Positions 2,075 to 4,966 are shown, counted from the first letter of the stretch. The stretch is DNA of 4,966 nt from a virus (IMGVR_UViG_2529292747_000018); one strand, 5' to 3'. Translations and numbers: made by a program. Notes: generated by a model not told the origin, from the sequence alone.

Positions 2075-2116
2075 TTGCATGAAAAATATGCACGGCAAAG
2101 CATTTACGTACGTAAA
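2075..2116 (+). promoter_or_regulatory. Promoter-like region with a perfect 14-bp palindrome TTTACGTACGTAAA (2103-2116); candidate late promoter or operator
   Basis: TTGCAT at 2075-2080 with a weak -10-like AAGCAT 17 nt downstream. Alternative TTTACG-N16-TATGCT at 2103-2130. The palindrome is perfect and overlaps these elements. An intrinsic terminator follows 50-75 nt downstream. Exact promoter position is uncertain. Confidence 0.25.
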
Positions 2117-2163
2117 AAATCAGGTATGCTGTTAAGAGTGGTTATTTCGCCGCATAGCTTGAC

Positions 2164-2185
2164 CCCGCCTCTGAGCGGGTTTTTT
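2164..2185 (+). terminator. Intrinsic terminator-like hairpin (CCCGC-CTCTGA-GCGGG) followed by T6
   Basis: 5-bp all-GC stem at 2164-2168 and 2175-2179, 6-nt loop, then TTTTTT at 2180-2185. Lies downstream of the CPBP gene and the promoter-like region. Confidence 0.5.
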
Positions 2186-2308
2186 GTGCCCGCAAAGTAG
2201 CGCAGTGCGTTAAATGTGCTGGTAGTTATTAATACAGGTCTTTCAGCTTGCTGGCTTTTTCGACAAGAGTTATTGGTGTGTCACGTTAACCGGAAAGGGT
2301 AAAAAGAC

Positions 2309-2671
2309 ATGCTGAAACAGCAGGATATGACAGAAACCGCCAGAGTTGTGTTTGATGAATTAAGCGTCACCGAACCGGCGACGGTCGGGGAGATTGCGCA
2401 GAATACGTACCTTTCACGCGAGCGCTGCCAGTTAATACTGACCCAGCTGGTTATGCGGGTCTGGCAGACTATCAGTTCGGTTGTTACAGACGCCTTCAGT
2501 CCTGAAGGCTTTTTTATTTGTGGTAAATGGGCGGCTGGTGGGTGTAAGGGGCACCCACCAGCCATCTGCTCATGCGTTGGGTTCACAAGCAAACCTCAGG
2601 CCCACTGCTTTGCGCAAAAGCAGAATGAGCCTATCAGAGACAGGCTTAATGATCCATGCTTAATACTGTAA
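2309..2671 (+). CDS. Hypothetical small protein; N-terminal ~60 aa plausibly coding, C-terminal half doubtful
   Basis: 120-aa ORF with a weak ribosome-binding site. The N-terminal part (TARVVFDELSVTEPATVGEIAQNTYLSRERCQLILTQL) looks like a small helical or HTH-like protein. The rest is translated through a textbook intrinsic terminator (2492-2519) and a perfect 12-bp hairpin (2533-2563), which argues against genuine coding. Confidence 0.25.
   Translation: MLKQQDMTETARVVFDELSVTEPATVGEIAQNTYLSRERCQLILTQLVMRVWQTISSVVTDAFSPEGFFICGKWAAGGCKGHPPAICSCVGFTSKPQAHCFAQKQNEPIRDRLNDPCLIL
2492..2519 (+). terminator. Strong intrinsic terminator (GCCTTCA-GTCC-TGAAGGC followed by TTTTTTATTT)
   Basis: Perfect 7-bp stem at 2492-2498 and 2503-2509, 4-nt loop, then a T-run at 2510-2519. 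Candidate for the Q-antiterminated late terminator tR' or an attenuator upstream of the methyltransferase. Confidence 0.6.
2533..2563. repeat. Perfect 12-bp inverted repeat GGCTGGTGGGTG / CACCCACCAGCC with 7-nt spacer
   Basis: Arms at 2533-2544 and 2552-2563 are exact reverse complements. No flanking U-run on either strand, so it is not a classical terminator. Stable RNA hairpin or protein-binding site. Confidence 0.6.
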
Positions 2672-3378
2672 AAATATCCAGTTGTGAGTTAATCAACGCC
2701 GACTGCCTGGAATTTATGCGGTCGTTACCCGAAAATTCTGTTGACCTGATAGTCACGGACCCGCCGTACTTCAAAGTGAAACCCGAGGGCTGGGATAACC
2801 AGTGGGCGGGTGATGAAGATTACCTGAAGTGGCTGGACCAGTGTCTTGCGCAGTTCTGGCGGGTGCTGAAACCTGCCGGAAGTCTTTACCTGTTCTGTGG
2901 CCATCGTCTGGCATCTGACACCGAAATCATGATGCGTGAGCGGTTTAACGTGCTGAACCATATCATCTGGGCAAAGCCGTCCGGACGCTGGAACGGGTGC
3001 AACAAGGAAAGCCTGCGGGCGTATTTCCCCGCCACAGAGCGCATTCTGTTCGCAGAGCATTATCAGGGGCCGTATCGTCCGAAAGATGCCGGGTATGAGG
3101 CGAAGGGTAGGACACTGAAACAGCATGTGATGGCCCCGCTGATTGCTTACTTTCGTGATGCGCGCGCTGTCCTGGGGATAACGGCAAAACAGATTGCAGA
3201 TGCCACAGGAAAGAAAAACATGGTGTCGCACTGGTTCAGTGCCGGTCAGTGGCAGCTGCCGAACGAAAGCGATTATCTGAAATTACAGGCACTGTTTGCC
3301 CGGGTGGCAGAAGAGAAGCATCAGCGGGGTGAACTGGAAAGCCCCACCACCAGCTGGTGGATACGTATGCCTCTCTGA
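2656..3378 (+). CDS. DNA methyltransferase (PF01555-like, beta-class N6-adenine/N4-cytosine), N-terminal fragment with DPPY motif; frame-split from the downstream part
   Basis: N-terminus LINADCLEFMRSLPENSVDLIVTDPPY carries catalytic motif IV (DPPY) in the arrangement typical of phage and ParB-linked amino-methyltransferases. The ORF ends at TGA 3376-3378 while the family's SAM-binding motif lies in the next ORF in another frame. Confidence 0.8.
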   Translation: MLNTVKISSCELINADCLEFMRSLPENSVDLIVTDPPYFKVKPEGWDNQWAGDEDYLKWLDQCLAQFWRVLKPAGSLYLFCGHRLASDTEIMMRERFNVLNHIIWAKPSGRWNGCNKESLRAYFPATERILFAEHYQGPYRPKDAGYEAKGRTLKQHVMAPLIAYFRDARAVLGITAKQIADATGKKNMVSHWFSAGQWQLPNESDYLKLQALFARVAEEKHQRGELESPTTSWWIRMPL

Positions 3379-3713
3379 ACCGACAGTATGCGGAGCTGCA
3401 GAGTGAATATAAGCATCTGCGGCGGTATTTCGGTGTGACGGTGCAGGTGCCGTACACCGATGTGTGGACGTATAAACCGGTGCAGTACTATCCAGGGAAA
3501 CATCCGTGCGAAAAACCGGCAGAAATGTTGCAGCAGATAATCAGCGCAAGCAGTCGTCCGGGAGACCTGGTTGCAGATTTCTTCATGGGGTCGGGGTCGA
3601 CAGTGAAAGCAGCGATGGCGCTGGGACGTCGTGCAACTGGCGTTGAACTGGAGACTGAACGTTTTGAGCAGACGGTGCGGGAAGTACAGGATTTAATCAT
3701 TCGTAACGGATGA
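3357..3713 (+). CDS. DNA methyltransferase C-terminal fragment (HPxxKP and FxGSGST SAM-binding motif I), same gene as 2656-3378 in a different frame
   Basis: Contains KHPCEKP and DFFMGSGSTVKAAMALGRR, the canonical C-terminal PF01555 signatures. The reading frame is open upstream of the annotated GTG start back to 3333 and overlaps the end of the N-terminal fragment, implying a single gene interrupted by a 1-nt indel or slip. Confidence 0.75.
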   Translation: MDTYASLNRQYAELQSEYKHLRRYFGVTVQVPYTDVWTYKPVQYYPGKHPCEKPAEMLQQIISASSRPGDLVADFFMGSGSTVKAAMALGRRATGVELETERFEQTVREVQDLIIRNG

Positions 3714-3753
3714 GATTGCGGAGTTAATCATGCGTCGTTATTATTCAGCAATC

Positions 3754-3829
3754 GGCCCTTTAGCTCAGCGGTGAGAGCGAGCGACTCATAATCGCCAGGT
3801 CGCTGGTTCAAATCCAGCAAGGGCCACCA
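3754..3829 (+). tRNA. tRNA-Ile2 (anticodon CAU, lysidine-type, AUA-decoding), ileX/ileZ-like
   Basis: 76 nt with cloverleaf: acceptor GGCCCTT/AAGGGCC, D-arm GCTC/GAGC, anticodon loop CTCATAA, T-arm GCTGG-TTCAAAT-CCAGC, 3' ACCA. Near-identical in layout to recalled E. coli ileX. The CAU anticodon could formally be Met, but similarity to ileX favours Ile2. Confidence 0.85.
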
Positions 3830-3830
3830 A

Positions 3831-3896
3831 CCGCCACTAGCTCATCAGGAAAGAACGTCACCCTGTGCGAGATTCGGAGTCCCCGGTGGCGGTCCA
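3831..3896 (+). other. Degenerate tRNA-like remnant (possible decayed argN-like tRNA)
   Basis: Perfect 7-bp acceptor-like pairing CCGCCAC (3831-3837) with GTGGCGG (3886-3892), followed by T-CCA, plus a D-arm-like TAGCTCA start and a T-loop-like TTCGGAGTCC. No foldable anticodon arm and only 66 nt long. Confidence 0.3.
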
Positions 3897-3909
3897 TTAT
3901 CGGTATTCT

Positions 3910-3986
3910 GCGTTGTTAGCTCAGCCGGACAGAGCAATTGCCTTCTAAGCAATCGGTCACTGGTCCGAATCCAGTACAACGCGCCA
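3910..3986 (+). tRNA. tRNA-Arg (anticodon UCU, AGA-decoding), argO/argU-like
   Basis: 77 nt: acceptor GCGTTGT/ACAACGC (perfect), D-arm GCTC/GAGC, anticodon stem ATTGC/GCAAT with loop CTTCTAA, T-arm ACTGG-TCCGAAT-CCAGT, discriminator G plus CCA. T-loop reads TCC instead of the usual TTC. Confidence 0.8.
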
Positions 3987-4171
3987 CACCACACTTATCT
4001 GCCCTGACTCTCTTTTGCGGGCTTTTTATTACAGGAAAGACACCGGACAGTGAAATGTTAAATGCCTCACAATTCAGGCAGTTGAATGTTGCCTGACATG
4101 CTGAGCGTTTGTTAAAAAAATTTCGCATGGTGAATCCCCCTGTGCGGAGGGGCAATCAGCAACCAGGTATA

Positions 4172-4180
4172 TGTGATAAT
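4172..4180 (+). promoter_or_regulatory. Candidate extended -10 promoter element (TGtGATAAT)
   Basis: TG at 4172-4173 one nt upstream of GATAAT (4175-4180). No convincing -35. Would start a transcript about 95 nt upstream of the terminator at 4259-4283. Confidence 0.2.
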
Positions 4181-4258
4181 CGCGGATTCAGGTGCTGATA
4201 CTGAATTCACCGGGAGGCACCCGGCACCATGCAAGAAAAAGAATGTGCATGCAAACAT

Positions 4259-4283
4259 GCCCCTCTCCGGAGGGGCATTTTTT
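4259..4283 (+). terminator. Intrinsic terminator (GCCCCTC-TCCG-GAGGGGC followed by ATTTTTT)
   Basis: Perfect 7-bp GC-rich stem at 4259-4265 and 4270-4276, 4-nt loop, then a T-run at 4278-4283. Confidence 0.6.
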
Positions 4284-4289
4284 ATGGGT

Positions 4290-4314
4290 AAAAAATGCCC
4301 GAATGGGTTCGGGC
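4290..4314 (-). terminator. Possible minus-strand intrinsic terminator (hairpin GCCCGAA-TGGG-TTCGGGC with adjacent A-run on + strand)
   Basis: Perfect 7-bp stem at 4297-4303 and 4308-4314. On the minus strand it is followed by a U-run (complement of A6 at 4290-4295). Together with 4259-4283 it forms a back-to-back terminator pair. No obvious minus-strand gene to terminate, so function is uncertain. Confidence 0.3.
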
Positions 4315-4375
4315 AATAGCATGAGATACTGATATTGTTGTGTTGTTATCGTGTGGATTTTAACCAGGGTTTATC

Positions 4376-4402
4376 AGGCTGCGCAACTGCGTGGCCTTTT
4401 TT
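4376..4402 (+). terminator. Intrinsic terminator-like hairpin (AGGCTGCGCA / TGCGTGGCCT with two G-U pairs) followed by T6
   Basis: 10-bp stem at 4376-4385 and 4388-4397 with a very short loop, followed by TTTTTT at 4397-4402 and a T-rich tail. Confidence 0.5.
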
Positions 4403-4410
4403 CATTTCTT

Positions 4411-4455
4411 GGGCTGTAGTCCCCGTGTGTCATTCAGGCTTCCGGACTACAGCCC
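4411..4455. repeat. Perfect 12-bp inverted repeat GGGCTGTAGTCC / GGACTACAGCCC with 21-nt spacer, just upstream of the nanS-p ribosome-binding site
   Basis: Arms at 4411-4422 and 4444-4455 are exact reverse complements. Located about 35 nt upstream of the GGGAGG Shine-Dalgarno of the downstream esterase gene. Confidence 0.6.
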
Positions 4456-4498
4456 ACTCCATATCTGATTTAATACACTATCCCGGCCGGGAGGAATA

Positions 4499-4966
4499 AT
4501 GACATTTAAACATTATGATGTTGTCAGGGCGGCGTCGCCGTCAGACCTTGCGGAAAAGCTGACACACAAACTGAAAGAGGGCTGGCAGCCATACGGCGGA
4601 CCGGTTGCCATTACGCCGTACACACTGATGCAGGCGGTGGCTATTGAAGGAGATCCACAGGTCGGCCCTTCATCTAAGCCGGACTGGTTCTACGTGGTTG
4701 TGCTTGCCGGACAGTCCAACGGCATGGCTTACGGTGAAGGGCTTCCGCTGCCGGATTCATACGATGCTCCGGATCCGCGCATTAAACAGCTGGCGCGCCG
4801 CAGCACGGTAACTCCGGGTGGAGAGAGTTGTACGTATAACGACATCATTCCGGCCGACCACTGCCTGCATGATGTGCAGGATATGAGTACGCTGAATCAT
4901 CCGAAGGCAGACCTGAGCAAAGGGCAGTACGGCTGTGTCGGCCAGGGCTTACATATTGCCAAAAAA
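4499..4966 (+). CDS. nanS-p: Prophage NanS-p-type sialate O-acetylesterase (N-terminal DUF1737-like domain plus start of SGNH/SASA hydrolase), 5' partial, continues past window end
   Basis: Open frame from ATG 4499 (GGGAGG Shine-Dalgarno at 4489-4494) to the window end, 156 codons with no stop. Translation MTFKHYDVVRAASPSDLAEKL...FYVVVLAGQSNGMAYGEG matches the recalled N-terminus of the YjhS/NanS-p esterases found next to stx in Stx phages. GQSN is the catalytic-serine block of sialate O-acetylesterase-type hydrolases. Confidence 0.85.
   Translation, partial: MTFKHYDVVRAASPSDLAEKLTHKLKEGWQPYGGPVAITPYTLMQAVAIEGDPQVGPSSKPDWFYVVVLAGQSNGMAYGEGLPLPDSYDAPDPRIKQLARRSTVTPGGESCTYNDIIPADHCLHDVQDMSTLNHPKADLSKGQYGCVGQGLHIAKK

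Follow-up and report, generated by a model that had tools for sequence, protein, structure and literature searches.

A small-RNA gene of the STnc100 family converging on AgvB in the late region of a lambdoid prophage

Results

Positions 4172-4291 of the DNA analysed here (viral stretch IMGVR_UViG_2529292747_000018, 4,966 nucleotides, called the window below) are the 3' part, about 60%, of an STnc100-family prophage small-RNA gene that is partnered with AgvB. The segment is part of a catalogued small-RNA gene, because the STnc100 match starts at 4096 and AgvB adjoins it tail to tail. The RNA family, which is in Rfam, and its dyad arrangement with AgvB/AsxR are already known. We estimate a probability of roughly 0.75 that this unit is an sRNA gene of the STnc100 family transcribed from a sigma-70 promoter of its own and ended by its own terminator, and that its product associates with Hfq and acts in trans. 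The original prediction had described the segment as a compact promoter, hairpin and terminator unit with a 20-codon ORF. The features that it listed were borne out by direct reading of the sequence, the terminator stem being placed here at 4257-4278, followed by TTTTTT.

The segment belongs to an STnc100-family gene

An Rfam scan of the window gave a match to RF02076 (STnc100) at 4096-4289 on the plus strand, with 157.6 bits (E 2e-36) against the curated gathering score of 47 bits; the match covers positions 1-206 of the 206 of the covariance model, i.e. its full length. The same scan placed AgvB (RF02702) at 4351-4290 on the minus strand with 96.5 bits against a threshold of 56, and this copy is identical to the consensus at 62 of 62 positions. 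The STnc100 unit and the AgvB anti-sRNA gene (4290-4351, minus strand) converge with abutting 3' ends as the two partners of a dyad, and the unit is convergent with AgvB/AsxR also in three other loci (L001, L234 and L235). A GcvB gene at 4255-4403 on the plus strand was considered as well and rejected: it scored only 20.7 bits in Rfam and is the complement of the GcvB-target mimic of AgvB.

When this copy is compared with the STnc100 family, helices, late-region prophage position and multicopy state are all common, and no disqualifying difference was found. Compared with the model, P3 is short, with 14 model positions deleted and a 4-nt insertion that makes the motif TGTGATAAT, and the Rfam model begins about 29 nt upstream of the 5' end that we infer for this copy. 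A self-contained unit of about 95 nt, as first proposed, does not agree with these results, since the family match starts at 4096 and the partners of P1 and of the P4 loop (see below) lie upstream of 4172.

The 5' domain is a conserved and covarying structure

The pairs of helices P1, P2, P4 and P5 were counted in an alignment of 111 homologues with mutual identity below 93%. It can be seen that, first, standard pairs occupy 91.8% of the pair cells, as compared with 42-46% when the partners are slid. Secondly, cells changed on both sides number 334, against 61-97 with slid partners. Thirdly, the covariation score is 0.292 against 0.04-0.09 with slid partners, a value reached by none of 500 shuffles. 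Double changes were found at 13 of the 26 pairs of the STnc100 helices. The 162-nt RNA 4125-4286 folds with -66.6 kcal/mol (z-score -4.2), and the segment 4186-4286 has a fold z-score of -3.5. Both of the hairpins noted originally and the terminator therefore belong to a conserved structure, above chance expectation. The suggestion of a small regulatory RNA with covarying hairpins and an intrinsic terminator of its own is supported by this covariation and by homologues that are discrete, Hfq-associated RNAs. With regard to conservation of the segment, the hairpins and a near-invariant core are conserved, while the ORF and TGTGATAAT are not.

P1 pairs GCATGGTG (4125-4132, plus strand) with CACCATGC (4225-4232, plus strand) and shows compensatory changes at three of eight pairs. 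Its 5' strand aligns with the estimated 5' end of PasD2, and its 3' strand, which holds the ATG of the ORF (4229-4231), alternates together with the 5' strand: among homologues the strand pairs are GCATGGTG/CACCATGC, GTGTGGTG/CACCACAC and TTGTGGTG/CACCACAA. The P2 hairpin (4136-4151, plus strand) pairs 4136-4140 with 4146-4147 and 4149-4151, leaving a bulge at 4148 and a U-N-N-G-C loop; 99.5% of its cells are paired in the 111 homologues, double changes occur at three pairs, and variants include CCTTTC/GAAAGG and GCGGC..GC-A-CGC. It is followed by the hypervariable P3 region on the same strand, which contains the subclade-limited TGTGATAAT at 4172-4180. P4 (4184-4208, plus strand) is the 8-bp hairpin of the original prediction, in which GGATTCAG (4184-4191) pairs with CTGAATTC (4201-4208) by eight pairs including one G-U; compensatory changes at seven of the eight pairs in the 111 homologues gave a positive answer when this hairpin was checked for covariation.

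The P5 hairpin, CCGGG-AGGCA-CCCGG (4210-4224, plus strand), pairs CCGGG (4210-4214) with CCCGG (4220-4224) and encloses GGGAGG (4212-4217). It lies within a near-invariant 22-mer at 4208-4229, CACCGGGAGGCACCCGGCACCA, and it could not vary among the 111 homologues because these were chosen by that 22-mer. We therefore refer to 35 divergent-core copies without the exact 22-mer, obtained by an anchored Hamming search. In these, P5 was almost invariant: apart from one compensatory type (C-G to U-A), which occurred twice, two changes were compatible with wobble pairing and one disrupted the helix, which indicates that P5 is conserved as sequence and not merely as a helix. Exact copies of the 22-mer occur in at least 120 viral contigs; among species-representative genomes, 110 stretches from many enterobacterial genera contain it (Kosakonia, Enterobacter, Klebsiella, Raoultella, Citrobacter, Trabulsiella, Buttiauxella, Pantoea, Erwinia and others). 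A tRNA-like origin, brought to mind by comparison of GGTGAATCC with the T-arm GGTTCGAATCC and by a CACCA tail, was discarded when neither ARAGORN nor the Rfam tRNA model found a tRNA.

A further pairing was found between the P4 loop TGCTGAT (4193-4199) and the J2/3 strand ATCAGCA (4155-4161, plus strand), and this complementarity covaries. True loop/strand pairs average 6.25 contiguous base pairs (longest match), against 4.49 +/- 0.10 when the loops were swapped among sequences (n=1000), and 0 of the 1000 permutations reached the true value. The pairing is 5 bp or longer in 88% of the family members, among which 71 distinct J2/3 strand sequences occur. The minimum-free-energy (MFE) fold of the single sequence swaps P4 for an extended helix, 4155-4167 with 4188-4199. 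The pairing is either a pseudoknot or an alternative helix, and a two-state switch is also possible; we read it as a pseudoknot because the family covariation backs both P4 and the loop pairing. In the Rfam consensus line P2 is drawn without a bulge and the P4-loop pairing is absent. The bulged P2 with its U-N-N-G-C loop, the covarying loop pairing and the near-invariant 22-nt core may each be new details.

Near-identical 5' domains are joined to unrelated 45-nt 3' tails in 38% of the pairs at 90-97% identity, and in 15% of the pairs whose 5' domains are at least 97% identical. Such swapping of tails supports a modular layout of scaffold and linker. Tandem arrays of the unit are present in some genomes. 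On the other hand, the near-invariant core and the pseudoknot exceed the needs of a simple pairing sRNA and count against our main reading; the loop pairing and the core suggest that the 5' domain is recognised by something. It is conceivable, if unlikely, that the first 108 nt or so are a specific ligand- or protein-binding fold, acting as a sensor that gates read-through into moron and lysis genes or as a decoy for a host factor, with the tails as interchangeable outputs. The features behind this idea are the junction closed by P1, the covarying P4-loop pairing, the U-N-N-G-C loop of P2, the 22-nt core and the tandem arrays. If true, the 5' domain would be more than a passive sRNA scaffold.

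The internal promoter motif and the 20-codon ORF are judged incidental

The leader-peptide attenuator put forward originally would consist of a transcript of about 95 nt from approximately 4185-4190, on which translation of a 20-codon leader ORF, gated by the hairpin that sequesters its Shine-Dalgarno sequence, modulates the overlapping terminator. Its starting point, TGTGATAAT at 4172-4180, makes a good extended -10 (5 of 6 plus TG), and close relatives retain it as TGnGATAAT. These amount to 19 of the 174 members, however, all from one closely related subclade with a short P3, and the motif is absent from about 155. No family-wide -10 signal was found at this position among the 174 members, and -10-like motifs inside the domain are in fact depleted (84, against 111 +/- 6 in shuffles). 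A promoter at 4172-4180 is thus not sustained; the conserved promoter-like signal lies upstream of 4125 instead. Furthermore, the partner of P1 (4125-4132) and that of the P4 loop (4155-4161) both lie upstream of 4172 and outside the proposed transcript, so a transcript from 4185-4190 misses two conserved pairing partners.

The ORF runs from the ATG at 4229 to the TAA at 4289-4291 (4229-4291, plus strand) and encodes the peptide MQEKECACKHAPLRRGIFYG. GGGAGG precedes its ATG by 11 nt, an arrangement in favour of translation, as are the ribosome coverage ratios of 1.5-3.2 reported for some STnc100 copies of strain EDL933 (PMC5331693). Nevertheless, a start codon is present at this position in 65 of 217 distinct homologues and missing from 152, the commonest triplet there being ACA; the ORFs vary in length between 2 and more than 37 codons and encode unrelated peptides. 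The ATG itself sits within P1 and covaries with the partner strand. ORFs of at least 20 amino acids overlapping 3600-4966 number 28, and one of 20 codons is therefore nothing remarkable. A small hairpin at 4247-4260, which overlaps the terminator stem by 4 nt, speaks for attenuation, but it leaves a GC stem of 5-6 bp of the terminator intact. The Phe_leader model (RF01859) has a threshold of 55 bits, and its hit here, at 26.8 bits (E 0.24), is not meaningful. Like leader-peptide attenuators, this copy has a short ORF that overlaps an intrinsic terminator; unlike them, it has no conserved ORF, no regulatory codon run, no conserved alternative pairing and no co-oriented operon downstream. What follows directly is the convergent AgvB gene, and beyond it a second terminator (4376-4397). 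Therefore, attenuation seems highly improbable, and we judge both the 20-codon ORF and the proposed internal promoter to be incidental.

Probable promoter and ends of the RNA

To locate the promoter signal, 168 distinct upstream sequences were lined up with the first base of P1 as the sole anchor. The information content is highest at -10 to -5 from this base (A in 73% at -9, T in 55% at -5), and T reaches 60% at about -33. This is the profile expected if a sigma-70 promoter initiated transcription at the start of P1 or no more than two bases away. Clear hexamers are seen in individual homologous loci, namely TTGACT-18-TATTTT, TTGACG-17-TACATT and TTGACC-17-TTAATC. Here the sequence is best read as TTGCCT (4089-4094, plus strand), a 17-nt spacer and TTAAAA. 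The former is the candidate -35 hexamer of the RNA's own promoter and aligns with TTGACT of PasD1/2; the latter belongs to a candidate extended -10, TGtTAAAAA (4110-4118, plus strand), which is in the region of the information peak and is identical in the Stx2a phage copy. A consensus scan offered CTGACA (4093-4098), 17 nt and AAAAAT (4116-4121) as an alternative.

The estimated 5' end of PasD1/2 is the G of GCATGGTGAATCC (for PasD2, NC_011601.1 741157), which aligns with window position 4125. By this homology and the sequence profile, the 5' end of the present RNA would be at about 4125-4128. The RNA is most likely about 160 nt long, from about 4125 to about 4284-4285, because the promoter-like signal stands at a fixed distance from P1 and aligns with the 5' end of PasD.

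Downstream of P1 a linker at 4233-4256 (plus strand) is unpaired in both the MFE and the centroid fold. It begins with AAGAAAAAGAAT (4233-4244), which reads as four A-R-N triplets; its position equals that of the PasD seed UGUGAG, and it is highly variable among homologues. It is likely, judging from these features, that the linker provides the Hfq-contact and target-pairing region. The intrinsic terminator (4257-4284, plus strand) consists of a 9-bp stem, ATGCCCCTC/GAGGGGCAT, with a TCCG loop, followed by T6. A terminator-like hairpin was found in 116 of 217 homologues, as compared with 8 in shuffles, and its end lies at a median distance of 45 nt downstream of P1; in the remaining 101 the relaxed, energy-based scan found no clear terminator within about 100 nt. 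A strict scan for perfect stems gave 99 of 217. By either count the terminator is not universal in the STnc100 family.

Termination might be the main purpose of the unit, which would then be an insulating module that halts transcripts from tRNA, stx or moron promoters ahead of the lysis region, with the RNA as their stable, functionless, terminated 3' end. A strong terminator does lie just after stxB in Stx phages and after tRNAs here, and StxS sets a precedent for a terminated late-leader fragment that persists as RNA (PMC7873438). We regard this as decidedly unlikely, however, as it leaves unexplained the covarying multi-helix domain of about 108 nt with its near-invariant core, the promoter-like signal with its constant spacing from P1, the tandem arrays of the unit and the RIL-seq partners of PasD.

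Position in the prophage

The gene content of the window is that of a lambdoid prophage late region. RusA (320-688), Q (PF06530, 681-1049) and the gene for an Rce1-like membrane protease (1204-2019) are followed, in window order, by a split DNA methylase, tRNAs, the STnc100 unit and a phage sialate esterase with a DUF1737 N-terminus (ORF starting at 4499). The position of the family is constant: Q is always on one side of it, and on the other are the lysis genes or morons, which are extra genes of the phage late region. A separate pR'/tR' unit, made up of the phage late promoter and its terminator, comes first and in the window is at about 2100-2190. In every Q-adjacent locus inspected, a lambda-like pR' with the TAACGATGGG pause motif and tR' precede the STnc100 unit, and the unit co-occurs with two unrelated Q families. 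The possibility that the unit is the Q-dependent pR'/tR' itself was rejected because a distinct pR'/tR' comes first and the Q families are unrelated.

A role in cis was considered as well. The 5' domain might be a sensor or recognition element that binds a ligand or protein, or a processing site, and might control read-through of the terminator or the fate of late or moron transcripts into the downstream genes (esterase, porin, lysis cassette), the sRNA being a by-product. The layout brings to mind an aptamer with a variable expression platform and a terminator behind it; many genera share the 22-mer without a mismatch, P5 is almost invariant in the divergent copies too, and the pseudoknot-type pairing covaries. 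In addition, 101 of 217 members have no clear terminator within about 100 nt, and one subfamily stands directly upstream of a KdgM-family porin gene. That about half of the members have no obvious terminator, some of them before this porin gene, hints at a cis role in some lineages. In the window, however, a convergent sRNA gene and a further terminator follow, and read-through into the esterase gene seems disfavoured. Holins, porin, esterase and unknowns all occur among the downstream gene families, a heterogeneity that fits a fixed prophage position rather than a regulon, and the homologues are abundant, discrete, Hfq-associated RNAs with partners in trans. No conserved antiterminator pairing was found: a riboswitch-style antiterminator between the P2 3' strand GGAGGGGC and the 5' strand of the terminator (GCCCCUC) can be drawn in the window, but the terminators of other lineages are unrelated to P2, so this similarity is not conserved. 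On balance a role in cis appears improbable.

In Stx phages the unit is found beside the toxin operon. The order in the Stx2a phage is tRNAs, stx2A, stx2B (ending at 3455), STnc100 (3530-3735, 206.9 bits), convergent AsxR and esterase; the Stx1a phage has the same order with an AgvB-like gene in the position of AsxR and an STnc100 score of 190.7 bits. The unit thus lies 75-80 nt downstream of stxB in both phages, and homology of the window to them starts at about 4058. The original prediction had placed the segment in the toxin-operon slot of Stx phages. This is corrected here: the unit is not in the toxin slot, because Stx phages carry it downstream of stxB. The slot lies upstream of the STnc100 unit, at about 3990-4057 of the window, and the unit is resident in Stx phages too. 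Its placement relative to stx agrees with a published description (PMC12370729), and Tree et al. 2014 (PMC4104026) reported a pair of converging sRNAs downstream of stx2B, with further such pairs in seven more prophages of strain Sakai.

Discussion

The reading that we prefer, a trans-acting sRNA of the STnc100 family, may be pictured as follows. Transcription would proceed from the -35 at about 4089-4094 and the extended -10 at about 4110-4118, start at about 4125 and stop at 4257-4284. The first 108 nt or so would form a compact domain in which a junction closed by P1 carries P2, the variable P3, P4 and P5; behind it would come a single-stranded, A-rich linker, then the terminator hairpin and a U tail. 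The RNA would be produced in the lysogen, constitutively and independently of the late antiterminator Q. Hfq would hold it through the U tail and the A-R-N linker, and the variable linker would base-pair with targets in trans. The conserved 5' domain, from the first transcribed bases on, would serve as a stabilising or recognition scaffold. The terminator may also block transcription not modified by Q before it reaches the esterase and lysis genes.

Discrete RNA species and binding to Hfq have been demonstrated by others for homologues, and by analogy the present RNA probably shares these properties. In EDL933, eleven STnc100 copies are transcribed and one of them (STnc100_4) was confirmed by northern blot; ribosome coverage ratios of these copies run from 0 to 3.2 (PMC5331693), and ratios above 1 in some of them count against our main reading. 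The stx2-linked copy is EcOnc27/sRNA103, which is crosslinked to Hfq and northern-positive and whose overexpression as sRNA103 raised fimZ and espA transcripts (Tree et al. 2014 and Gruber and Sperandio 2015, as cited in PMC7873438 and PMC12711010). The dyad partner of AgvB is EcOnc06, and at least 8 Sakai prophages carry such dyads (PMC4104026, PMC7873438, PMC12711010 for these dyads and for EcOnc27/sRNA103). Both EcOnc06 and EcOnc27 crosslink to Hfq in strain Sakai (PMC4104026, PMC7873438). The present copy falls in this EcOnc06 or EcOnc27/sRNA103 class of the EHEC studies: all are convergent with AgvB/AsxR and lie between the late promoter and the lysis genes. We infer a one-to-one identity with EcOnc06. 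The 3' linker differs from that of the stx2-linked copy, and the effects of sRNA103 on fimZ and espA therefore need not apply here.

The copy is also structurally related to PasD of EPEC. PasD1/2 of strain E2348/69 are northern-verified RNAs of 172-173 nt, found with their partners by RIL-seq on Hfq (Pearl Mizrahi et al. 2021, PMC8550237), and PasD and STnc100 have been reported as structural relatives (Zhu, Shabalina and Storz 2026, bioRxiv 10.64898/2026.05.13.724894). PasD1/2 and the present copy are alike in promoter geometry, in the P1/P2 start (GCATGGTGAATCC...), in layout and size class, and in position upstream of an esterase or holin gene. They differ in P3-P5 and in the linker, which carries the seed UGUGAG in PasD; this motif is absent from the linker 4233-4256, and identity with PasD at the level of sequence is not seen. 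The PasD1/2 loci score 41.4 and 37.7 bits, below the STnc100 threshold of 47. In an hfq mutant PasD changed by log2 fold values of +0.55 and -0.18 (table S2, PMC8550237); levels so barely altered indicate that dependence on Hfq may be weak. A literature search found no paper on 'EcOnc13', a name given for a PasD homologue.

Lambda 6S and StxS resemble the present RNA in being short, terminator-ended and constitutively made from the lambdoid late region, and StxS is Hfq-bound as well. They come from pR' stopped at tR', whereas here a separate pR'/tR' lies upstream of the STnc100 unit.

The STnc100 family is frequent and multicopy in E. coli and stands beside Shiga toxin genes. Of 5426 complete E. 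coli genomes, 2852 contain a match to the 381-bp stretch 4040-4420, some of them at as many as 13 places; identity is 99.7-100% in many strains of O157:H7 and of other Shiga-toxin producers. A further 353 phage records match the stretch, most of them from Stx-converting phages. Variants just upstream of the stx2-linked copy have been reported as predictors of severe disease. By our reading of their position, these variants would fall in the putative promoter of the stx2-linked STnc100 copy, which is possibly a new observation.

Structure of the STnc100 RNA

Pairing within the STnc100 prophage sRNA extends to the loop of the P4 hairpin. The strand that follows P2 (window 4155-4161) is complementary to this loop (4193-4199), and covariation between the two segments is found family-wide. 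The match between loop and strand was 6.25 bp in the true set vs 4.49 bp after permutation, and the observed value was reached in none of 1000 permutations. The pairing either forms a pseudoknot or represents an alternative helix, and the Rfam STnc100 consensus line lacks it. The RNA also carries three Shine-Dalgarno-like GGAGG motifs (window 4136-4152, 4212-4217 and 4270-4276), every one of which is buried within a helix or hairpin. In the related EPEC sRNA PasD, the P2 hairpin sequence is CCUCCUUGGAGG, which resembles an SD/anti-SD pair.

Disease-linked variants at the putative promoter

Two HUS-predictive variants, T/C at +90 and delT at +103, have been reported downstream of stx2B (PMC12711010). 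Positions 3540-3560 of the Stx2a phage locus L234 correspond to window 4106-4126. With a numbering uncertainty of 1-2 nt, the variants fall in the putative promoter of the STnc100/EcOnc27 gene, +90 on the extended -10 (its TG) and +103 on the discriminator.

AgvB and a second terminator

Convergent with the STnc100 unit lies the anti-sRNA AgvB (anti-GcvB; window 4290-4351, minus strand), a perfect copy identical to the Rfam consensus at 62 of 62 positions (96.5 bits), with its own terminator at 4315-4296 (minus strand). A second, rightward terminator-like hairpin (4376-4397, plus strand; 9 pairs and a T-run) is also kept in the Stx2a phage, at about 3815-3840 of L234. It falls in the interval that separates AgvB from the esterase gene, overlapping the region where the AgvB promoter is expected.

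Multiple copies and a porin-linked subfamily

Model R1 gave 131 matches across 100 loci. In some Superficieibacter and Enterobacter genomes the domain occurs 3-5 times within one locus (L146 6365-7005, L161 135-1626, L145 3966-7920, L164 2763-7099 and L136 3141-7476), in places as tandem runs spaced by about 220-270 nt. In a Kosakonia/Enterobacter/Klebsiella subfamily (L126, L137, L140, L141, L147, L149, L163 and L175), no obvious terminator follows the domain, and a KdgM/NanC-family porin gene (PF06178), for which the domain may thus serve as a leader, begins 80-200 nt downstream.

Upstream genes and elements

A StxS-type late promoter/terminator unit (window about 2100-2190, plus strand; terminator 2164-2179 followed by a T-run) is homologous to the sequence directly after the antiterminator gene Q in related loci; in the window, Q and this unit are separated by the insertion of an Rce1-like CPBP protease gene (1204-2019). 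The DNA methylase (PF01555), a single 349-aa protein in related loci, is here split into two overlapping plus-strand reading frames (2656-3378 and 3357-3713); the probable cause is a frameshift near 3357-3378. Only two tRNAs were called in the window by ARAGORN and Rfam. The uncalled middle one of the three phage tRNAs (3839-3900, plus strand), whose counterpart in the related locus L001 is an Arg tRNA, is degenerate, with several substitutions and the anticodon arm lost by a 12-nt deletion.
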